From positions 1 to 52,640 of IMG/VR virus record IMGVR_UViG_3300002854_000247: a stretch of 52,640 bases of DNA. The stretch is one strand, 5' to 3'. Shown here one piece after another: positions 34,709-52,325 of the stretch. Each line of letters opens with the position of its first letter. Position 1 is the stretch's first letter. The notes below the pieces were generated by a model, which saw only the letters and a program-made list of their open reading frames with translations, did no database searches and had not been told where the DNA came from. This DNA comes from a virus (lineage: Duplodnaviria; Caudoviricetes). The position numbers and the translations under genes are program-made.

Positions 34709-37210
34709 TCATGCCGCCTCGACTTCCCGTTCGAATATGTCGAACATCGTCGGCGTCGAAACCTCGCGCTCCATAGCCTGCAGGTACTTGATGCCATCAA
34801 GGAAGTATCCAGGGTTCAACTCGGATGCGCGACCGCGGCGGCCAAGCTTCAGCGCCCGGTACGGTACGGTGAACAACCCGCCGAACGGATCGAAAACCAG
34901 CTCCCCCTCATTGGAGAATCGCTTGATGAGGCGGTCGACAATGTCGAATTGGAGGGGGCAAATGTGGTTTTCCAGCCCCTTCTTCGTCTGCTCGCCGTTC
35001 AGCGTCCGCATGCGGTTCACGTCGTGCCAGGTGAATGCGTCGTGGGCGCCTGGCGCCAAGCTCATGAAGGTCGACGGTAGTGCGCCGCGGACTTCGAGCG
35101 CTTCACCGATGCGGATGTGCGTCTCGTAGTCATAGACGTTCTGCATCGTCCATTCGGTGAAGGCCTTCGCCAGAAGATCCGGGCCAAGGCTGGCAAGCTC
35201 TTCAGGCGTCGGAAGCCGGTCGCCTGACGAGCGCCAGAAGGCATGGGCGTCAACCTGCCACCGGGCACGGGTGTAATCGTCTTTCGACTTGGAAACGCGC
35301 TCGTCGGCGTAGGCCTTGGAGGTGTCGGACGGCAGCTTGCGGAAGAGCAGAGTGTATTCGGGCGAGCCCACGCCCATCTTCGTGCCGTCCTTGCAGTTTT
35401 CGGACCAGCCGAGGCGATAGGTCTGGTTATTCTCGCGCACCACGTCCGTGTTGACGGTGATCATGCCCATGTAGGCAAACCCGTGCTGCATGGTGTGGAA
35501 GAGCGTGCGGGCGTGGAACGGGTTGACCGTCGGCATCCCCATGCCGGTGACGTTCCCGAATAGGATGCGGTCCTTGGTGTGGCAGGCGTAGACCCGGCCG
35601 GGCTTGAGGATCCTCAGCAGTTCGGGCGTCAGAAAGTCCATCTGTTGGAAGAAATGATCGTCGCCGTCGGTGTGGCCGAAGTCGTTATAGCTCGGGGTGT
35701 ACTCGTAGTGGTTCGAGAAGGGGATCGAGGTCACGATCAGGTCGACCGAGATATCGGCCATGGACCGAGCCTCTTCGACGCAATCGTTGTTCGCCACCTG
35801 CCATCCCTCGCCGCGCGCTTCGATCCGCTCGACGCCGATGGAGCGGGTCAGGACCTCAGCAGCCGAAAGCTTATCAAGGCCATGCTCGCGGATGATTTCG
35901 CTCATTTTCTCGACCATGCGATTATGTGCCTCCCATTTGGCTTGGAGGGTGCGCAGGACCTCGCGCTCGCTCTCCGCGTAGATGATGTGGATTTCGACCT
36001 CTTCGACCTGCAGGAATCGGTAGATGCGGTGCAGAGCCTGGATAAAGTCGTTGAATTTGAAGCCGATGCCGAGGAACACAGCCTTGTGGCAATGGCGTTG
36101 GAAGTTGCAGCCGGAGCCGGCGATGACAGGTTTCGCGGCGAGGTACTGAAACTTACCCTCGCTGAAATCGACGATCGCCTCTTCGCGCTTCTCGAGATCC
36201 TGGGTCCCGTAGATCGACACGGCTGATGGCACGGCGCGCTCGATCGCGCGGCGCTCGTCTTCAAGATCGTGCCAGATGATGAAATGATCTTCCGGAGCGC
36301 CGGCAAGGATCTCGGTCATCTTGGCAATACGGGCATCGAGCGTGTCGCGCTTCTCACGCGATGCCGAGACAACGCCAACAGCGGTATCGCGGAAGAGTGC
36401 AGCCTGGCCATCGCGATCAACGCCGCCGTCCGCGATGTTCGACTGAACCTCGTGGTAGATGACCTTGAACGGCGGCAGGTCGTATCCTTCAGCGGAGTGG
36501 CCCAGGTCAGCCGGCGACTGCAAAAAGATCGCCCACGAATTCAGCCATAGCCAGAATTCACGCTCCTTGTGCGGGTAGAGCGTCAGATTGTTGGCCTGGG
36601 TACTGTCGCGCTGGAAGAACCGCGTCAGGGCCTGCCCGGTGTCCATGATGCCAAGGAAGCCGGCGTAGTGGATCAGTTCCTTGTAGCGGTTCGGGCTTGG
36701 CGTGGCCGTCGCGACAAAGCGATAGCGAACCTGATCGAACAGCGAGAGAAACGTCTGATAGGTCTTCGAGCCATAGGAGCGAAGCACGGACGCCTCGTCC
36801 AGGCTCACGGCCGTGAACTGGTTCGGATCGATCTTACCGTCGCGGACGGTCTCATAGTTCGTCATGTAGATGCCGGTCTCGCCAGCTTCTTCGATGCGAC
36901 GAATGAACTTGATATCGACGCCGAGCATCTTGCCGTCGCGGCGAAACTCCTGACGGACGCCGAGCGGCAGGACGATCAAGCCACGGCCAGCGACAGCGGC
37001 GCAGACGAGGCGCAGGACCTCGATCTGGATAACTGACTTGCCCAGGCCAAACGCCGCGAAGATTGCCCGCTTGCCGCCGCGGGCGGCCCACACGACGATA
37101 TCGCGCTGATGGGGCTTGAGGATCGGGTTCACGTCGCCGTGGGAGATCGGCAGGCCTGAGACCGGAGCAAGACGGATTTTGCCTTTGAGAAAGTCGCCGT
37201 AATCCATCAC
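34709..37210 (-). CDS. SNF2-like helicase domain fused to N4/N6 DNA methyltransferase
   Basis: FGLGKS, LDEAS, TATPSPN; C-terminal TSIPF and DPFGG motifs. Confidence 0.88.
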   Translation of the reverse strand: MMDYGDFLKGKIRLAPVSGLPISHGDVNPILKPHQRDIVVWAARGGKRAIFAAFGLGKSVIQIEVLRLVCAAVAGRGLIVLPLGVRQEFRRDGKMLGVDIKFIRRIEEAGETGIYMTNYETVRDGKIDPNQFTAVSLDEASVLRSYGSKTYQTFLSLFDQVRYRFVATATPSPNRYKELIHYAGFLGIMDTGQALTRFFQRDSTQANNLTLYPHKEREFWLWLNSWAIFLQSPADLGHSAEGYDLPPFKVIYHEVQSNIADGGVDRDGQAALFRDTAVGVVSASREKRDTLDARIAKMTEILAGAPEDHFIIWHDLEDERRAIERAVPSAVSIYGTQDLEKREEAIVDFSEGKFQYLAAKPVIAGSGCNFQRHCHKAVFLGIGFKFNDFIQALHRIYRFLQVEEVEIHIIYAESEREVLRTLQAKWEAHNRMVEKMSEIIREHGLDKLSAAEVLTRSIGVERIEARGEGWQVANNDCVEEARSMADISVDLIVTSIPFSNHYEYTPSYNDFGHTDGDDHFFQQMDFLTPELLRILKPGRVYACHTKDRILFGNVTGMGMPTVNPFHARTLFHTMQHGFAYMGMITVNTDVVRENNQTYRLGWSENCKDGTKMGVGSPEYTLLFRKLPSDTSKAYADERVSKSKDDYTRARWQVDAHAFWRSSGDRLPTPEELASLGPDLLAKAFTEWTMQNVYDYETHIRIGEALEVRGALPSTFMSLAPGAHDAFTWHDVNRMRTLNGEQTKKGLENHICPLQFDIVDRLIKRFSNEGELVFDPFGGLFTVPYRALKLGRRGRASELNPGYFLDGIKYLQAMEREVSTPTMFDIFEREVEAA

Positions 37211-38310: not shown

Positions 38311-38633
38311 GCCGGCACCTCGTCGAACATCGGCCGTGCAGGCTGGCCCGCGCCGAAAATGTCGAACGCAGCAGCCATTTCGTAATCAGGCTTGCCGGAC
38401 TGGCGGGCCTTCACCATGCCGCCGATTGAGCCAGCACGGCGCGCGGCGGCGATGGTGTTCCGGGATTTGAAGCGTCGGCCATGGTAGGCGCCGAAGGACA
38501 AAACCTCTTCCCGCTCGGCGCCGAGGTTCATGGCGATGTGGCGGGCAGACATTAAGCATTCGATGCCGCCGTCGATCTGGGCGAGCTTCTGTTCAGTTGA
38601 GGCGCGAGACCACCATGAAATTTTACTGGTCAT
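38307..38633 (-). CDS. Hypothetical protein
   Basis: ATGA-coupled; MTSKISWW start. Confidence 0.65.
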   Translation of the reverse strand: MTSKISWWSRASTEQKLAQIDGGIECLMSARHIAMNLGAEREEVLSFGAYHGRRFKSRNTIAAARRAGSIGGMVKARQSGKPDYEMAAAFDIFGAGQPARPMFDEVPA

Positions 38634-39847
38634 TGCGCAGCCTCCAGAGCTTCGGCCAGCCCGAAAGCAGCCATGATGTCGCCTGCACGGTGCGGGAATT
38701 CCTTCGCCAGTTGGGCGGCGATCTTCCGTTCCTGCGCAGGGGTGAAGTTGCGGGAGGCGCGCTGCCACTCGATCAAGTCGAGGAGCAGGTCAGAGCCGCT
38801 GTATTCCTGGACGGGGTAGCTAATGCCCAAATCGCGGGCGATGTTGTATCTGGCCCAGCCGTCAACGATTACGTCGCCTTGGCGGACAATGGGGGTATGC
38901 ATACCTTTAAAGGCAATGTCGGTGCCAAGGGCGTCATAGGCCGCATTCGACAATTCGGGGAAGCAGTGAGCGAAGCCCGGCCGCTTCATCGGCATCGGCG
39001 GGACGTCTTCCATAAAGACGCCGGGGCCAATGGGGAGAGTGCTGGCGGCACCCTCCCCGTTCTCATCACGGTTTGCGCGCAACGCGCCGCCATTTACATG
39101 ATCGCCTCCTGCGTTGGCGGCGGCGGCGTGATCAGCGCGGTCGTCGCTGGTTGGTGCCGTCGCTTCGCCTTGAGTGGCGACGGTGGCTTTCTCGGAATGG
39201 GTTGCCGTCTCTCCGGCTGTCACGGCCGTAGCTTCCGTCCTCGCCATGCGCACCGTACCGTCTTCGCCGTTGGGCCGGTTGGCCGCGGCACGCGCGGGTT
39301 CCGGATTGCCAATAAGGTGAGACCCAGGGTGTTGCATCTCGTCTGCCGTTTCCGGCGAATGGGTTGCAGCGCTTTCTTCGGCCACACGCGCTGCCAGCTT
39401 GGAGGAGACGGAGGGGGAGCCGTCCGAAGCTTCAAGTTCTTCCGCCTCTTCGCGTTCGATCATGATGTTGATGGCAGTCAGAAGCGCCGCCTTGCCTGCT
39501 TCGCTTTGTATGCCGTCAACGACCTGCTTGATCAGGCGCGGGTTGGCGTCGAATTGTTCAATGTTTTCTCGTGCGTATGCGCGGGATGCGCGCGGGGCTT
39601 CCAGTGCGGCGAGATAGGTATCGACCAGAGCCTCGTGCTCGGCGTCGGCCGGATCGGCCTCGTCCATCTTCACCTTGAGGCGGAACGCGGCGCGCATGGC
39701 CTTCGTGTCGTGGCCGAATGCCTTTTGCTCGGCAAACAGTTCCTTGAGGTCGTCGCCGATGCGGGCCTTTTCCTCTTCCAGGTTCTTCCAGCGCTGGAAA
39801 GCGGAGCGGACCTGATCGTCTGCGATGGCGTGGGGCTCGGTGCTCAT
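38630..39847 (-). CDS. GapR/DUF2312-like N-terminal domain + disordered linker + ParB-like C-terminal domain
   Basis: LEEEKARIGDDLKELFAE.KA.G.DTKAMR; DI..KG...PIV...VIVDG..RY. Confidence 0.8.
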   Translation of the reverse strand: MSTEPHAIADDQVRSAFQRWKNLEEEKARIGDDLKELFAEQKAFGHDTKAMRAAFRLKVKMDEADPADAEHEALVDTYLAALEAPRASRAYARENIEQFDANPRLIKQVVDGIQSEAGKAALLTAINIMIEREEAEELEASDGSPSVSSKLAARVAEESAATHSPETADEMQHPGSHLIGNPEPARAAANRPNGEDGTVRMARTEATAVTAGETATHSEKATVATQGEATAPTSDDRADHAAAANAGGDHVNGGALRANRDENGEGAASTLPIGPGVFMEDVPPMPMKRPGFAHCFPELSNAAYDALGTDIAFKGMHTPIVRQGDVIVDGWARYNIARDLGISYPVQEYSGSDLLLDLIEWQRASRNFTPAQERKIAAQLAKEFPHRAGDIMAAFGLAEALEAAQ

Positions 39848-40065
39848 GCGGCGGCTCCCGGCTGCGCGACAAGCCCAGCGAGATCGGGGCGAAGCTCATG
39901 AGGGGGAATGCCGGTGGCCTCGGAAACGGCCTGCAGGTTTTCAGCCGGGATCCGGCGCTTGCCGGTCTCGTATCGAGACCATTGCACCCCGCTCACGCCG
40001 ACAAGATCACCGGCTTCTTCGATGCTGAGTTTACGCGCCTTGCGCCATGTCCTGATCTTTTCCAT
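39844..40065 (-). CDS. Cro-like XRE regulator
   Basis: IRTWRKARKLS...WSRYETGKR.IP...LRPDL; divergent from repressor. Confidence 0.85.
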   Translation of the reverse strand: MEKIRTWRKARKLSIEEAGDLVGVSGVQWSRYETGKRRIPAENLQAVSEATGIPPHELRPDLAGLVAQPGAAA

Positions 40066-40071
40066 GAGCCG

Positions 40072-40166
40072 AAATTACCATATTGGCAATTTCAGTCAAC
40101 GAGGAAAATTACCATTTTGGCTATTCTTTGCCAAATGCCTGAAAAGTAGATTGCCAACATGGCAAA
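40072..40166. promoter_or_regulatory. OR-like operators and PR-like promoter
   Basis: AAATTACCAtatTGGCAATTT (40072), AAATTACCAtttTGGCTATT (40106), TTGCCAacaTGGCAA (40151, over cI ATG); TTGACT-N16-TAATTT on - strand. Confidence 0.8.
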
Positions 40167-40506
40167 CACGAAGACGGCATCGGAGCCAAAAGGCATCTTC
40201 ATCAGAGAGTTGATGGAGGCCCGCGGGCTCAAGAACAAAGACGTAGCCGAAGCAATCGGCACGAGCGACGTTAACGTGTCGCGGCTTCTCAGTGGGCAGC
40301 GCGGTTTAGATCTCGACTGGTTGCATGCATTCGCACGAGCGCTTGATGTTCCGATCTGGGAACTGTTTCAGCCGCCTGGGCGAAACCGTAAAGTCTCCGG
40401 CGAAGCGGAGGTGAAAGCCCTCCTCAAGCGGATAGAGGGCCTTCCTGACGAGGCTGTCAGCCACGTGTGGCGGTTGATTGACGGTTACGTTTCAGACGCC
40501 GAGTGA
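40159..40506 (+). CDS. CI-like XRE repressor without S24 peptidase domain
   Basis: IRELMEARGLKNKDVAEAIG...VSRLLSG...FARALDV; only 115 aa. Confidence 0.85.
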   Translation: MANTKTASEPKGIFIRELMEARGLKNKDVAEAIGTSDVNVSRLLSGQRGLDLDWLHAFARALDVPIWELFQPPGRNRKVSGEAEVKALLKRIEGLPDEAVSHVWRLIDGYVSDAE

Positions 40507-40714
40507 TATGGACGAACGGCTCCTCATGGTCGATTTGCACTCGCCATTCTCCGCCATGTAGAATGGCCATGGCGATCGAGATTTCAGCCGCCTTCCGTTT
40601 AATGACCGTTTGCATCTCCTGTTCAGTCCCGACACCAGGGCCATAGAGGAGTTCAGCGACGATCTCTTCTGCTTTGGTGTCGTATTTGCGCCTGATCTGG
40701 TGGATGATCGCCAT
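40457..40714 (-). CDS. Hypothetical protein, second gene of LexA-box operon
   Basis: GAGGA SD; overlaps cI 3' end by 50 nt. Confidence 0.65.
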   Translation of the reverse strand: MAIIHQIRRKYDTKAEEIVAELLYGPGVGTEQEMQTVIKRKAAEISIAMAILHGGEWRVQIDHEEPFVHITRRLKRNRQSTATRG

Positions 40715-40731
40715 GGTAACGTGCTGTCCTC

Positions 40732-40980
40732 CTAGATCGGCTGCATGTTGCTGACTTCCTCGGGCTTCTCGGCACCATGGAAATAAATCAGCTTCGGCTC
40801 TCCGAAGTCGCCACTCTCCGGGTCGCCCTCCATGACCGTGGCGAAAACCATCGGCTTGGTCTGCGCCAGGCGCTCCGCCATTCGGCGCGCGTGCATCACA
40901 CTATTTGCCTGGACAGCGATGTCGGCCTTCATGCCGCGTTTGGCCGGCGAGAAGGATTGAACCACGAAAAACTCTGCCAT
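40732..40980 (-). CDS. Hypothetical protein (82 aa), first gene of LexA-box operon
   Basis: AAGGAG SD 7 nt before MAEFFVVQSF; GDPESGDFGEP motif. Confidence 0.75.
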   Translation of the reverse strand: MAEFFVVQSFSPAKRGMKADIAVQANSVMHARRMAERLAQTKPMVFATVMEGDPESGDFGEPKLIYFHGAEKPEEVSNMQPI

Positions 40981-41031
40981 GCTCATGCTCCTTGGGCTTG
41001 TGAACTGGCCCGTAGCATGCCTCGAAAACGA

Positions 41032-41046
41032 GAACGCAACAAGAAC
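41032..41046. promoter_or_regulatory. Alphaproteobacterial LexA (SOS) box
   Basis: GAAC-gcaacaa-GAAC (GTTC-N7-GTTC on - strand), ~50 nt upstream of 40980. Confidence 0.75.
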
Positions 41047-41221
41047 AAACTTAGGAAAATAGTCACATCCACTGAGAGCAGGCACGCTGAACAGCCACGC
41101 GCGTCGGTAGCCACTTTGAATTGCACGACGCAATCGCCATTTCGGATACACCGGATGTCCCACCTCAACTCTAGCTCTACGAAGCGAATCGTGTTCACCT
41201 ACAGTTGTTGTGGAGGGGACG

Positions 41222-42487
41222 ATGACAGCTGAAGTTTGCATTATGAACAGACTCGCCGCAGTTCTGGCTGCGGACTCGGCGACGACCGTGACACGCTGGG
41301 TCGATGGGGAAGAAGAAAAGAGGTATTTCAAGGGAGCGAACAAAGTTTTCCAGCTTTCCGATAAACATCCCGTTGGATTGATGATTTTTGACTCGGCAGC
41401 CATCCTAAATGTACCTTGGGAAATAATAATAAAAACCTTTAGAAGTAACTTAGGCGACAAATCATTCAATACAGTTGAGGAATACGCGCGCGAACTGTTT
41501 GCATTCTTGAATGACAGCTCATTTTTCTTTCCGGAAGAGGTTCAAACAGAACAAGTGCTCGGCCCCGCCAAAGCGATTGCAATTGGCATGATATCGGAGG
41601 CGATAGACGGGCTAGATGCCGCCGAACATGCCGACGCTATTGAAGCAGCGTTTTCCGCCCGTCGCGATGAGCTAGCATCCGTCGATGTGTCGTCTTGCCT
41701 GGGCGTCGAGCATATGGAGAAAACAATTCAGGACTTGCGTGAGAGAATGGAGATCTTCATTACTGAATTCTCTTCAGCGATGAAGTGGCAACTTCCCGGT
41801 GATGTGAAATCGATTGCAGAAACTTGCCTGGCGGACGTCGTGAAGAATCCTGATATTCATCTCGGCACGACAGGATTGGTTTTTGCAGGCTTTGGAGACC
41901 ACGAGATTTTCCCAGCTATGGTTGAATATCTATCTTGCGGTGTCGTTGGCGGAAAGCACATCTATCGTCGTGAATCTGGGATGGCAATTGACCATGAAAC
42001 GCCGGCATGGCTGAGCGCGTTTGCGCAAACATCTATGACGGACACGTTTTCGATGGGTCTAAGCCAAGACGTCTACGAAAGCATGGCCGTTGCCATATCC
42101 GAAAACCTACATGGCTTCGCAAGCCAGATAAGCGAGGCTGCTGGTGGCGACATATCGGTAATTGACGACCTGGAAGGCCTGGTGCAAGCTACGCGAAGCA
42201 AAATCGGCAAGTCGGTGCTTGACAATGCGCGAAAAGAACACTCATTCCCCCTTCGCAGGGTGATTGGCGTTTTGCCAGTAGATGAAATGGCGGAATTGGC
42301 AGAAACATTAATCACTCTTCAATCGTTGAAAGAGAAGGTGACAAAACCCTCAGAAACCGTCGGCGGACCGGTGGATGTGGCTGTGATCACCAAACACGAG
42401 GGTCTGGTTTGGATTAAAAGGAAGCACTTCTTTAATCTGGACATAAATTCGAGATACAGCTTGCGCCAAGCAGCGCTGCATTCGTAG
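41222..42487 (+). CDS. Proteasome-beta/HslV-like Ntn hydrolase with large insertion (421 aa)
   Basis: GGAGGGG SD; after Met removal Thr1, ADS at 16-18, NKVF Lys; C-terminal TVGGPVDVAVITK. Confidence 0.75.
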   Translation: MTAEVCIMNRLAAVLAADSATTVTRWVDGEEEKRYFKGANKVFQLSDKHPVGLMIFDSAAILNVPWEIIIKTFRSNLGDKSFNTVEEYARELFAFLNDSSFFFPEEVQTEQVLGPAKAIAIGMISEAIDGLDAAEHADAIEAAFSARRDELASVDVSSCLGVEHMEKTIQDLRERMEIFITEFSSAMKWQLPGDVKSIAETCLADVVKNPDIHLGTTGLVFAGFGDHEIFPAMVEYLSCGVVGGKHIYRRESGMAIDHETPAWLSAFAQTSMTDTFSMGLSQDVYESMAVAISENLHGFASQISEAAGGDISVIDDLEGLVQATRSKIGKSVLDNARKEHSFPLRRVIGVLPVDEMAELAETLITLQSLKEKVTKPSETVGGPVDVAVITKHEGLVWIKRKHFFNLDINSRYSLRQAALHS

Positions 42488-42502
42488 CCCTAGGAGATAC
42501 AT

Positions 42503-42700
42503 ATGGCAGACAAGACCAACACGCTAAGGAAGGCGATGGAACAGCGGCCCGAAGGTAAGAAACCATCCTTTGAGTCGCAGCCGAACCAAGCTGCTAGCGC
42601 CGCCCTAAAGAAGGAAAGTCGCGCGCAGTACCGCGGCTACGTGGACTCAATCAATCGTTCCAGCGACAGAGAGATCGAGCATGCGCTTAGTCGGTTCTAA
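42503..42700 (+). CDS. 65-aa partner protein
   Basis: AGGAG SD, 15 nt after Ntn gene; terminator follows. Confidence 0.7.
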   Translation: MADKTNTLRKAMEQRPEGKKPSFESQPNQAASAALKKESRAQYRGYVDSINRSSDREIEHALSRF

Positions 42701-42728
42701 CTGTTCTTAGGACTCTGCCAACGACACC

Positions 42729-42756
42729 AAGCCCGCCCTCACCGGCGGGCTTTTTC
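42729..42756. terminator. Rho-independent terminator
   Basis: AAGCCCGCC-ctcacc-GGCGGGCTT-TTT. Confidence 0.85.
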
Positions 42757-42763
42757 GTGTGGT

Positions 42764-43246
42764 TCAGCACCAAGGCTCGCGGCGTCCACTCCATGTTCTC
42801 GCCAAGCCTTCCGAAACCAGCTGATCACCAATCGAATGACCGTCGCGAATTAGGACCCGAAGCTTTCGGCCGTACTTGTCCTTGTCTCGGCCCTCCCAAG
42901 CCTGCAGTTCGAACGGCTGGTTGGTCAATAGCTCTCGCAGCCTTGCTGTAGCTTTCCGTCCAAGGGCAAGTTCGCTTTCGCACTTAGGCTCGCCAACCTC
43001 CGGCGTGTCTATGTCTGCAATGCGGATCTTCTCCCCATCGAGCCAAATCGTGTCACCGTCCACAATGCAGGTATGACGCTCCGTGCCGGTGCAGATCGGG
43101 AAGTTCCGGACGATCCCAGCCGGCTCCGGTGAAGCGATCGCATTACCGCTGGCCTCAAGGTGATCCCAAACCACCACGCCACCGAACACCGCCGCGCTGG
43201 CGCAAACGACCACTGCTACAAAGCGGACGCTCGACATCTCACTCAT
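42764..43246 (-). CDS. Thermonuclease (SNase-like) with N-terminal signal/TM
   Basis: VDGDTI, IRIADIDTPE, DKYGR.L, LVSEGLAR. Confidence 0.9.
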   Translation of the reverse strand: MSEMSSVRFVAVVVCASAAVFGGVVVWDHLEASGNAIASPEPAGIVRNFPICTGTERHTCIVDGDTIWLDGEKIRIADIDTPEVGEPKCESELALGRKATARLRELLTNQPFELQAWEGRDKDKYGRKLRVLIRDGHSIGDQLVSEGLARTWSGRREPWC

Positions 43247-43415
43247 TTATTGCCTCGCATGGGTGGAGCACCGCGAGACGATACAATTCTGAGCTTACTT
43301 GTTTCTGAACATGTCTCCGAGGCGGTCATCGCTGGAGCTACCGTCGACGCGCTTCGTTCCTTCGAGCAAGGTTTTATGGCTGTGCGATTCTCGCTGCAAT
43401 AGGCTCGGTCGCACA

Positions 43416-43470
43416 AAATTACCAAATCGGCAATTTCCTTCTTGACGGAGACTTACCATTTCGGTAATTT
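43416..43470 (+). promoter_or_regulatory. OL-like operators and PL-like promoter
   Basis: AAATTACCAaatCGGCAATTT (43416), TTACCAtttCGGTAA (43453); TTGACG-N17-TAATTT. Confidence 0.85.
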
Positions 43471-43516
43471 CCTCTCATCACCTCCCGACCACCGGGAAAG
43501 ACGAGGAGCGACCGAA

Positions 43517-43792
43517 ATGACCGCAGCAGTCTCCAGCAGCAAGAACCTCTACCCATATTACACGACGTCGGAACTCGCTCGCGCCGCCACCGCGCCGCGC
43601 CTGTCCACCGCCGAGCGCATTCGCATGCTCGACGAGATCAACCGCCGCGATGCCGCCGAGGCAGGCGGCGTTCTGTCCGCGCTGAAGGCAGCCGAGGAAT
43701 TCATGTCCGGCTTCCAAGGCGACGAGATGCAAGACGGCATCGACGCGAAGCTCGCTCTGATCCGCGCCGCCATAGCCAAGCAGTCCAACTGA
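43517..43792 (+). CDS. Early hypothetical protein
   Basis: GAGGAG SD; ends LIRAAIAK. Confidence 0.7.
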   Translation: MTAAVSSSKNLYPYYTTSELARAATAPRLSTAERIRMLDEINRRDAAEAGGVLSALKAAEEFMSGFQGDEMQDGIDAKLALIRAAIAKQSN

Positions 43793-43856
43793 TCCCCTTC
43801 GGCATCCGCCTCTCCCATGCGGCGGATATCGAATGAGATCACCTGAGGAAGCCACC

Positions 43857-50795: not shown

Positions 50796-51107
50796 ATGGG
50801 TGAGATATCAACCGACCTTCTGACGCCTGACCAAGCGGCCCAGCTCCTCACCATTTCAACAAAAACCTTGCGCGAGCACGTCAGGGCGGGCGAGATTGCC
50901 TTCATCCCGACCGGCCGGGGCGAGAAGCGAGTTCGGATGAGCTTTGATCGCAAGGACATCCTGGACTTCATCGAAAGCCGCAGGAAACGAGCATGTCCGT
51001 CTACAAGCACGCAAAAAGCCCCTTCTACCAAATTGAGTTCCAACTCAACGGTCATACTTTTCGAGGATCTTCAAAGACCCGGAACAAGAAGGAAGCTGAA
51101 GCCCTAG
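50796..51107 (+). CDS. Excisionase-like HTH protein
   Basis: LLTPDQAAQLL.IS.KTL; overlaps integrase start. Confidence 0.8.
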   Translation: MGEISTDLLTPDQAAQLLTISTKTLREHVRAGEIAFIPTGRGEKRVRMSFDRKDILDFIESRRKRACPSTSTQKAPSTKLSSNSTVILFEDLQRPGTRRKLKP

Positions 51108-52123
51108 AGCGAGCGTGGCGTATAAAGGCTATGGCTGAAATTGAGGAGCGGCGTCGGTCCACCACCGGCCCGCTCACCCTTTCCATGGCAGCCGGTCGGT
51201 ATATGACGGAGGTCATGGTGGGAAAGGCGTCTGAGGGCGATACATACCGCTCGCTAGAGCGGCTTATCAAGTCGATCGGTGGCGCCACACGCATGGACCA
51301 GATCACGGATGCCCATGTGGCGAGCTTCATTGCCAAGCGACGAACCGATAACCGATACGGGAAAAAGAAAAAGCAGGACGACAGTGCTATGGGCACCGTG
51401 TCGAACGCTTCTATCAACCGCGAGACGGCGGTATTAAAGCGACTCTTCATGCGGGCGCGCAGGACTTGGAAGCTCACACTGCCTAACGAACCAGATTGGC
51501 GCGGCCACATGCTGCCGGAGGAAGCCGAGCGCGTCCGCGAGATACATGAGGACGAGGCTGACATCCTCTATAGCGGCTTGCGAGATGATTATCTGCCGTG
51601 GCTTGAATTCGCCCACATGAGCGGCCTGCGGCTCAACGAGACCCTTTTGCGTTGGACATCAGTAAACTGGAAAACTGGCCAGATCCGCACGAAGGGTAAG
51701 GGCAACAAATGGGTCGTGACCCAGATCACCCCATCTATTCGTGCCGTTCTTGAGCCACTGATAGGGCATGATCCCGAATTCGTATTCACATACGTCGCGA
51801 AGCGCGCGTCCAAGCCCGGCAACAAGATCCGCGGCCAGCGGTATCCGTTGACCTACTCCGGCATCCAGAGCCATTGGAGGCGTTTCAAGGATAAGAGTGG
51901 AATCAGCGACCTGCGTATCCATGACATACGTCATGACGCCGCTTCGAAGATCGTCCGAGAGACCGGCAACCTTAAGGTCGGCCAGAAGCTGCTAAACCAC
52001 AGTTCGATTTCAGTGACCGCGAAGTACGCTCACGTCCTCGATACAGAGGTTGCCGATGCGATGGAGCGAGTAGCCAAAACACGGGGGAATCGGAAAGGCG
52101 GCATGAAGGGAAATGGCCAGTGA
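50993..52123 (+). CDS. int: Tyrosine recombinase (phage integrase)
   Basis: SGLRLNE, RIHDIRH, LLNH, T.KYAH catalytic motifs. Confidence 0.95.
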   Translation: MSVYKHAKSPFYQIEFQLNGHTFRGSSKTRNKKEAEALERAWRIKAMAEIEERRRSTTGPLTLSMAAGRYMTEVMVGKASEGDTYRSLERLIKSIGGATRMDQITDAHVASFIAKRRTDNRYGKKKKQDDSAMGTVSNASINRETAVLKRLFMRARRTWKLTLPNEPDWRGHMLPEEAERVREIHEDEADILYSGLRDDYLPWLEFAHMSGLRLNETLLRWTSVNWKTGQIRTKGKGNKWVVTQITPSIRAVLEPLIGHDPEFVFTYVAKRASKPGNKIRGQRYPLTYSGIQSHWRRFKDKSGISDLRIHDIRHDAASKIVRETGNLKVGQKLLNHSSISVTAKYAHVLDTEVADAMERVAKTRGNRKGGMKGNGQ

Positions 52124-52248: not shown

Positions 52249-52325
52249 TGGCGACCCCTGCAGGGCTCGAACCTGCGACATTCTGCTTAGAAGGCAGATG
52301 CTCTATCCAGCTGAGCTAAGGGGCC
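52249..52325 (-). tRNA. tRNA-Arg(TCT), integration site
   Basis: GGCCCCTTAGCTCAGCTGGATAGAGC...CTTCTAA...GTTCGAGC...GCCA cloverleaf, 77 nt. Confidence 0.95.

Follow-up and report, generated by a model that had tools for sequence, protein, structure and literature searches.

The 52,640-base stretch of viral DNA analysed here (hereafter, the window) is the complete provirus record IMGVR_UViG_3300002854_000247 from IMG/VR, and its plus strand carries a compact two-gene cassette. The first gene (41222-42487, +) encodes a 421-amino-acid (aa) proteasome-beta-like N-terminal nucleophile (Ntn) hydrolase of the PHROG 5990 family, probably the published class PMI-4, with a putative active site of Thr2, Asp18 and Lys41 and with insertions at residues 105-213 and 317-350. 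The second gene (42503-42700, +), preceded by GGAGA at 42493-42497, encodes a basic, hydrophilic partner of 65 aa with a conserved C-terminal helix at about residues 32-62, and the unit is closed by an intrinsic-terminator-like hairpin and T run (42729-42757, +; hairpin proper 42729-42752, 9 base pairs of which 7 are G-C). The 70-nucleotide (nt) fold at this terminator has a free energy of -27.8 kcal/mol (z -3.58), and an Rfam search over 39500-43800 returned a sub-threshold Trp_leader match alone, lying on the same hairpin (21.8 bits versus 41). GC content is 0.46-0.52 over 41200-42599 versus 0.57-0.66 in the flanks. A first-pass annotation, made by a model from the DNA letters alone, had described this low-GC stretch and a small open reading frame (ORF) led by a Shine-Dalgarno sequence and followed by a terminator, as we find them; it had also read the pair as a protease-based anti-phage or toxin-antitoxin system, a proposal weighed further below.

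The longest form of the enzyme ORF begins at a GTG (41210-42487), and the ATG at 41222, which opens the protein as MTAEV, is preceded by GGAGGGG at 41212-41218. Conservation was assessed on an alignment of 137 near-full-length representatives, 28-56% identical to the window protein, with 14 shorter, fragmentary ones left out. Thr2 is present in all 123 relatives that hold the N-terminus, and exactly one residue, Met, precedes it in 121 of them; the remaining 14 of the 137 are called from an internal Met8. Asp18, Ser19 and Lys41 (of an NKVF motif) are invariant in 137/137 relatives, the first two becoming Asp17-Ser18 once Met is removed, and Lys41 is equated with proteasomal Lys33 by our own reading, which needs an 8-residue hairpin insertion (strands 20-37). 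Near the C-terminus, GGPVDVAVITK (residues 381-391) aligns with SGGMIDVAVITRKDG of the Thermoplasma proteasome beta subunit. The start at MTAEV with its Thr1, the Asp17-Ser18 pair, the NKVF lysine and the GG-P-VDVAVITK strand had all been singled out in the first-pass annotation, and each is borne out by the relatives. Because the nucleophile triad (Thr2, Asp18 and Lys41) is invariant, the enzyme would be expected to be an active hydrolase.

The family is large and remote in sequence from characterised proteins. Among PHROGs, only phrog_5990 (annotated as unknown function) is matched by the enzyme, end to end, with an E-value of 2.4e-80; a word-indexed search gave at least 2,336 matches, and searches of 50%-identity representatives gave 5,523 enzyme-family clusters at E<=1e-3 and 2,776 at E<=1e-30. 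A search for longer fused forms of 780-2225 aa found none, which is weak evidence, and the range 738-779 aa was not searched. Against the Protein Data Bank (PDB), the single enzyme sequence returned 0 matches. The best match of a C-terminal sub-profile was the Thermoplasma beta subunit, with etvGGpvdvavitkseG placed on SASGGMIDVAVITRKDG (E 0.04), and the sole match of an N-terminal sub-profile was a proteasome beta subunit (E 1.5), with Asp18 on Asp17 and Thr2 on Thr1. When the profile of all 137 sequences was used, the top four matches were beta subunits (E 0.021-0.024), which made up 17 of the 51 matches at E<=10; the others were mostly helical bundles, for example apolipoprotein E, aligned to the insertion. 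These PDB matches are marginal by E-value and specific by register. In the ESM Atlas, the nearest named cluster (score 0.89, 183 shared features) has PF00227 in 75% of its members. When the family profile was compared by hhalign with profiles of HslV (5 sequences) and Anbu (2 sequences), either whole or as separate N-terminal, middle, C-terminal and core blocks, the probability reached 1.2% at best, a null that does not count against the fold, the template profiles being too shallow.

Structurally, the AlphaFold2 model of the enzyme has a mean predicted local distance difference test score (pLDDT) of 91.3 and a predicted template modelling score of 0.88, with no segment below 50. Its elements, assigned with DSSP, follow the order S1-S4, H1, H2, four inserted helices, S5-S8, H3, an inserted long helix, H4, S9, S10 and H5, with H2 at 85-98, H3 at 271-306 and H4 at 353-374, and the model has the four-layer alpha-beta-beta-alpha core of proteasome-like proteins. 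Added to the proteasome-beta core are a beta-hairpin (20-37), four helices after H2 (105-213; 105-128, 133-152, 162-187 and 195-213) and a helix between H3 and H4 (317-350); the first-pass annotation was thus right to attribute the size of the protein to helical insertion, although there are two such insertions plus the hairpin rather than one. Foldseek against the PDB returned 15 chains at E<=0.001 (best E 1.1e-4; template modelling score 0.52-0.56 by target length), and among the matches listed all are 20S subunits or Anbu. VIA-align gave Z 16.7 to active beta5 subunits (root-mean-square deviation 3.2-3.5 A over 184-185 of about 200 target residues), Z 16.3 to an archaeal beta subunit and Z 16.1 to Anbu over 192 aligned residues, placing model residue 2 on residue 1 of mature beta chains; Z was at least 8 for 985 of 1000 chains aligned. 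The fold check proposed in the first-pass annotation thus comes out in its favour, with proteasome-beta topology at Z 16-16.7. For a prediction, the Ntn proteasome-like fold can be regarded as all but established, and the product of the first gene is almost certainly an enzyme of this type.

A structural or catalytically dead protein, for example one belonging to a capsid module, is by comparison extremely improbable. What suggests it is Porphyromonas phage022a_WW2931, where the gene lies between portal and neck genes and no capsid gene is annotated; the predicted fold is proteasome-like and not capsid-like, the nucleophile triad is invariant, the window prophage has its own head genes elsewhere, away from the cassette, and other copies lie far from structural genes. 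The more specific idea of a capsid protein, which came from that Porphyromonas context, was ruled out by the fold and the other contexts.

Evolutionarily, the enzyme resembles a class from a published survey of proteasome homologues (Fuchs, Alva and Lupas 2021, PMC8665760), in which 22 new homologues were recognised through sub-significant matches together with active-site conservation. As described there, PMI-4 (Proteasome homolog with Multiple Insertions 4) is the most populous of the six PMI classes, with 501 nr90 sequences, is found in the main bacterial phyla and is the sole PMI class marked for phages; it lacks a propeptide and bears two insertions, a long one after H1/H2 and one between H3 and H4 (PMC8665760). 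The window enzyme shares the insertion sites, the lack of a propeptide and the broad bacterial spread including phages, and its family is therefore probably PMI-4, matched by published description and architecture rather than by sequence. The earlier statement that the pair could not be assigned to a named system thus holds for defence systems, whereas the enzyme family itself is very probably catalogued. The survey states that its authors found no genomic context or co-occurrence pointing to a function, and its treatment of the insertion-bearing PMI classes gives neither function nor partner (PMC8665760); the partner, its docking site and the accessory positions described below are additions of the present analysis to that account. 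The same source holds that such insertions should hinder the assembly of rings and double rings (PMC8665760). Since the insertions of the modelled enzyme fall at the pore-loop and ring-to-ring contact sites of the 20S proteasome, a classical double ring is unlikely. Among the papers listed in our literature search, none takes up PMI-4 after the survey, and none connects phage defence with a proteasome-like protein.

Proteasome homologues in bacteria comprise the housekeeping proteases HslV and 20S, plus orphans such as Anbu and BPH. With 20S beta subunits the window enzyme has in common the fold, the equivalents of Thr1, Asp17 and Lys33 and the strand motif GG-x-[IV]-D-V-A-[VI]-I-T, but it lacks a propeptide and an alpha subunit and carries about 220 extra residues in the two helical insertions and the hairpin. 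Anbu is likewise a bacterial homologue that starts with Met-Thr and has no propeptide (as in loci L050 and L051), and it aligns with the model over most of its length, whereas at about 240 aa it is without the window enzyme's insertions; Anbu also has a published conserved operon, which differs from the cassette. HslV resembles the enzyme in its bacterial origin, its proteasome-like fold and a Thr1 exposed by Met removal; it differs in being compact (182-203-aa ORFs at L045-L049), and no AAA+ gene is linked to the cassette among viral or chromosomal neighbours. HslV works as a double hexamer with the AAA+ unfoldase HslU, and the insertions of the window enzyme sit where such rings would touch (PMC8665760). 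At L050 and L051 (genomes G001 and G002), the genomes of cassette hosts contain, besides HslV, an Anbu-like homologue that begins with MTYCVG, so that up to three proteasome-fold proteins coexist per cell.

The enzyme gene is accompanied nearly everywhere by a small ORF. Among 32 genome loci, nearly all have one beginning within about 30 nt of the enzyme stop, and two apparently partner-less loci (L005 and L027) proved on inspection to have it. The viral set comprised 74 IMG/VR loci with a complete enzyme gene, after four N-terminally cut loci were dropped; near-duplicates are many (42 groups at 85% identity), and a downstream ORF is present in 72 of the 74, including the overlapping one of L125, the other two stopping at the locus edge. 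A fusion of enzyme and partner in L125 was considered and rejected, the partner there being a separate, overlapping ORF of 55 aa. Gaps between the two genes range from -29 to +31 nt, and annotated phage and plasmid records show the same small downstream ORF at 41-58 aa. The neighbourhood check proposed at the outset for the small ORF is in this way answered positively. A profile hidden Markov model (HMM) built from 20 alphaproteobacterial partners was run on 10,478 stop-to-stop frames: 25 matched at E<1e-7, all of them directly downstream of an enzyme gene and 5 of them outside the training set, and the next best frame had E 0.14.

In sequence, the partners are small, polar and diverse. Across loci they measure 41-75 aa; the 74 distinct ones have a median length of 64 aa and a median grand average of hydropathy (GRAVY) of -0.90, with none positive, and an isoelectric point above 8 in 49/74. 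They split into several mutually unrecognisable sequence families. In the 20 partners aligned, Tyr43 is invariant (20/20) and Asn51 is present in at least 90%. The ratio of nonsynonymous to synonymous substitution rates (dN/dS) is 0.06-0.22 in close pairs, with dS near saturation, and partner dN is mostly about 1.3-2.8 times enzyme dN (0.9-1.2 times in three pairs). The window partner has 0 matches in the PDB, and its profile has 22 matches in a set of 5.8 billion proteins, all annotated as hypothetical. Judged by these sequences, the small ORF is a real, fast-evolving gene under purifying selection that is inseparable from the enzyme gene, and enzyme and partner very probably form an obligate two-gene unit. 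Two variants were seen. At L073 (4001-6365; also L074) the enzyme has 445 aa and the small ORF is replaced by an overlapping gene for a 360-aa membrane protein with N-terminal hydrophobic segments. At three chromosomal loci the enzyme gene has decayed, through frameshifts (L030, 6001-7465; L037, 6001-7483) or truncation after about 170 codons (L033, 6001-6673), and the partner ORF is intact and recognised by the partner HMM. These three copies are the only hint of toxicity, and the six-fold difference in gene size could produce the pattern by chance.

We predicted the complex of the two products and obtained a median interaction prediction score from aligned errors (ipSAE) of 0.72 (runs 0.67, 0.74 and 0.72), with the best of 3 controls at 0.00; in calibration, 58 of 80 solved complexes attained the mark used for this score, as did 2 of 110 mismatched pairs. 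Between runs, at least 63% of the contacts are shared, and the pLDDT of the partner is 61. Since no similar complex has been solved, a memorised complex is unlikely. The confident predicted interface places partner residues 32-62 on enzyme residues 254, 259-265, 274-293 and 329-346. These enzyme residues belong to the loop leading into S8, the exposed side of H3 and the long inserted helix; partner residues 1-31 are not placed. H3 and H4 make the ring-to-ring contact in the 20S proteasome (PMC8665760), so the partner, docked as modelled, would cover that face. At this interface the enzyme positions vary more than the average position of the protein (mean entropy 3.33 versus 2.48 bits), a variability that fits co-diversifying cognate pairs. 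We consider it rather likely, on the strength of the model, that partner and enzyme form a physical complex.

A small protein docked on a probably non-ring proteasome homologue recalls connectase, in which a helical insertion could likewise govern specificity for one protein partner, and the enzyme might be a transpeptidase or ligase of that kind, with the partner as its substrate or tag, loosely as Pup is with the actinobacterial proteasome. Precedent comes from connectase itself, a monomeric proteasome homologue that carries a helical insertion and works as a specific ligase, and the insertions of the window enzyme also argue against ring formation (PMC8665760); the partner is moreover strongly hydrophilic, Pup-sized and encoded beside a proteasome homologue. 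However, it has no conserved C-terminal residue or Gly-Gly-type end, and no ligase-type co-factor gene is conserved nearby. The insertions, too, are at the H1/H2 and H3/H4 sites and not at the connectase-defining S3/S4 site: connectase lacks H1/H2 and has its insertion between S3 and S4 (PMC8665760), whereas the window enzyme keeps H1/H2. Taken together, we regard a ligase as very improbable.

In the window, the cassette lies between a cI-like gene and a plus-strand recombination operon that reaches the integrase, and the head, tail and replication genes of the prophage are all on the minus strand. The cI-like gene (40159-40506, +) encodes 115 aa with a helix-turn-helix (HTH) match at residues 12-71 and no match to a peptidase family, and the cro-like gene (39844-40065, -) diverges from it. 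Two small minus-strand ORFs stand between the cI-like gene and the cassette: one of 85 aa (40457-40714, -; phrog_32610, unknown function), antisense to the cI-like gene and sharing 50 nt with its 3' end, and one of 83 aa with no family match (40732-40983, -). Beyond the cassette, a 160-aa staphylococcal-nuclease-like protein with a hydrophobic N-terminus (42764-43246, -; PF00565; phrog_452 endonuclease) is encoded convergently, its gene ending at the terminator region of the cassette; this appears to be another accessory gene of the immunity region. In lambda, the two-gene exclusion unit rexAB adjoins the prophage repressor, and the cassette had been assigned to the equivalent position. The region is indeed rexAB-like, yet, with the two minus-strand ORFs intervening and the nuclease-like gene following, the cassette forms a separate transcription unit, whereas rexAB is co-transcribed with cI. 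A promoter is presumed in the intergenic region upstream (40984-41221, +), which holds the ribosome-binding site GGAGGGG (41212-41218); a promoter scan of 39800-43600 found no sigma-70 consensus site, and no clear operator-like repeat was seen upstream of the cassette.

Beyond the window, IMG/VR holds 241 enzyme-family stretches, and the loci are alpha-, beta- and gammaproteobacterial, with one from Rokuibacteriota, together with phages of Streptococcus, Porphyromonas, Providencia and Stenotrophomonas. In the Stenotrophomonas phage the cassette separates lysis from tail genes and lies on the other strand; in Streptococcus Javan85 it follows the lysin at the prophage end, and Streptococcus satellites have it at their right end, in one case next to RelBE. 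On viral contigs of at least 25 kb, 14 of 51 copies are found no more than 3 kb from an end, where about 15% would be expected. Two further observations concern the satellites: in Javan421 (L131, 5001-8362) one accessory region is common to the cassette, a HAD-type hydrolase and a RelB/RelE pair, and in Javan468 and Javan421 a putative transcription regulator of about 98 aa is encoded directly upstream of the enzyme gene. Among 138 neighbouring ORFs at 29 genome loci, only 3 integrases, 2 transposases and 2 ImpB-type polymerases recur, many neighbours are housekeeping genes, and no conserved third gene was found. The cassette is thus a mobile, self-sufficient accessory module of temperate phages, satellites and chromosomal islands.

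The commonest neighbours among 150 viral ORFs (39 non-redundant loci) are repressors and endolysins, which bears on whether the cassette serves the phage itself. In such a role, the protease would come into play upon infection or induction and degrade host immune or regulatory proteins, in counter-defence or takeover, or cleave an HTH-only repressor in the manner of ImmA-type anti-repressor proteases, with the partner as adaptor or timer. The cI-like repressor of the window, short and without a peptidase-family match, would suit this, as would the prominence of repressor families (phrog_4 in 6 and phrog_8 in 5 of the 150 ORFs) and the presence of some copies in late or lysis regions. However, copies lie equally often beside endolysins, at satellite ends far from a repressor, or by chromosomal housekeeping genes with no phage genes in the five nearest ORFs, and no repressor family is consistently linked; the cassette's own terminator, and its orientation opposite to late genes in some phages, suggest expression independent of the lytic programme. 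A role in the phage's own cycle is, in our estimate, unlikely.

The chromosomal copies raise a different possibility, namely a housekeeping-like role in clearing damaged or unfolded proteins under stress, with mobile elements carrying the genes passively. Many chromosomal copies do lie beside ordinary metabolic genes, and the Discussion of the published survey proposes ATP-independent clearance for such homologues (PMC8665760). The patchy distribution, low GC, mobile-element positions, three decayed copies and hypervariable cognate interface are, in contrast, signatures of accessory or conflict genes, and make a housekeeping role quite improbable.

Functionally, we posit that the first gene supplies a proteasome-beta/Anbu-like Ntn hydrolase whose catalytic Thr would be exposed by removal of the initiator Met, without a propeptide, and which is enlarged by two helical insertions predicted at the pore-loop and ring-to-ring contact sites. 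The C-terminal helix of the second product would pack against H3 and the second insertion, where the enzyme surface varies most, and the small partner, as inhibitor, adaptor or first substrate, would set the activity or the target choice of the Thr-protease. The pair would be expressed from its own promoter in the lysogen and could serve its carrier element in conflict, either as an addiction-like module or against other phages, by exclusion or abortive infection. Hydrolase activity, control by the partner and the biological role are what we infer; a conflict role, whether defence or addiction, is a tentative proposal that we hold to be a little more doubtful than probable, and the working as a whole, limited by biological role as its weakest link, deserves the same reserve. 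In its most specific form, the cassette would be a new phage-borne immunity or addiction module, in which a non-ring, proteasome-derived Thr-protease is silenced or aimed by a hypervariable partner and freed by infection or element loss to cleave a host or phage target; this is speculative and, as stated, somewhat unlikely.

Proteases paired with a dedicated small substrate or regulator are known from Craspase-Csx30, CalpL-CalpT and gasdermins with their proteases. These systems, like RexAB, offer a functional analogy only, their folds and chemistries being unrelated to the cassette, and the cassette encodes no sensor (CRISPR effector, cyclic-nucleotide or other). Type II toxin-antitoxin systems share with it the operon-like arrangement and, if the model is right, binding between the two products. 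Its placement matches the slots of exclusion, toxin-antitoxin and conversion genes, which is a prior and not evidence.

Several observations weigh against a conflict module built on an active proteasome-type protease. At the level of the enzyme, Pfam, NCBIfam and PADLOC-DB 2.0.0 (at E<=10) gave no match for enzyme or partner, and PF00227 (Proteasome) matched neither the enzyme nor any other part of the whole record, even at E<=10, which sets the enzyme apart from 20S beta subunits. The supporting active-site residues also appear to differ from those of 20S; for them, the register of the Gly47, Ser129, Asp166 and Ser169 equivalents was set by hand: position 57, aligned to Gly47, is Gly in 65/137, Asp in 28/137 and Asn in 24/137 relatives, with Asp in the window protein; the Ser129 equivalent appears to be Gln (position 269, Gln in 89/137); and the Ser169 equivalent is Gly (position 381, Gly in 117/137 and Ser in 18/137). 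By the same manual register, Glu378, compared with the support residue Asp166, is present in 115/137 relatives. The confident partner contacts are at H3 and the second insertion and not at Thr2, so that inhibition is not directly indicated. A type II toxin-antitoxin reading has against it a would-be toxin of 421 aa, a downstream partner without a DNA-binding domain and the rarity of plasmid carriage (10/72,556 records), unlike classical addiction modules. The Providencia phage has the cassette between Q/Dam and holin, inside the late operon, and the Porphyromonas copy lies in the head-neck module, also within a late operon; both fit a role in lytic growth. Finally, no defence-gene enrichment was seen near the cassette among the 138 chromosomal and 150 viral neighbour ORFs, a small sample without background control: PADLOC named 8 families at one ORF each on the chromosomal side, 3 of them at E<=1e-8 (MzaA, 2.4e-76; mad2, 3.5e-20; RT_UG29, 4.6e-9), and mainly HTH and methyltransferase models on the viral side. 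From the first-pass proposal of a two-gene, protease-based anti-phage or toxin-antitoxin system, then, the two-gene unit, the fold, the predicted binding and the accessory position survive, whereas the lack of a PADLOC match, the few defence neighbours and the rarity on plasmids leave the anti-phage or toxin-antitoxin role plausible but unsupported, and the defence-island enrichment it suggested looking for did not appear in this sample.

The present analysis adds the cognate partner, a predicted docking site for it on a hypervariable surface, and the ecology of the pair as accessory genes: a family of 5,523 clusters at 50% identity proves to be paired nearly everywhere with a previously unnoted, rapidly diverging small ORF, and an orphan family becomes a directly testable two-component system. 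If the conflict role is true, the reach of the proteasome fold would extend to phage-host warfare, the cassette being the first conflict system on that fold, and one of the largest orphan families of proteasome homologues would acquire a function, that of an immunity or addiction module. Should no conflict role be found, the cassette would still define a new class of regulator for Ntn proteases.

Elsewhere in the window, the right end of the record carries a tyrosine integrase gene (50993-52123, +; phrog_1) that adjoins a tRNA-Arg(TCT) gene (52249-52325, -), and this end is likely the attachment site. Directly downstream of the cro-like gene lies a gene for a 405-aa early protein (38630-39847, -) whose N-terminal part matches the GapR-like DNA-binding domain PF10073 (E 4.4e-16), and the replication and early region also encodes an 833-aa protein (34709-37210, -) that combines a SNF2-like helicase region with an N6/N4 DNA methylase domain (phrog_16, E 3e-135; PF01555).

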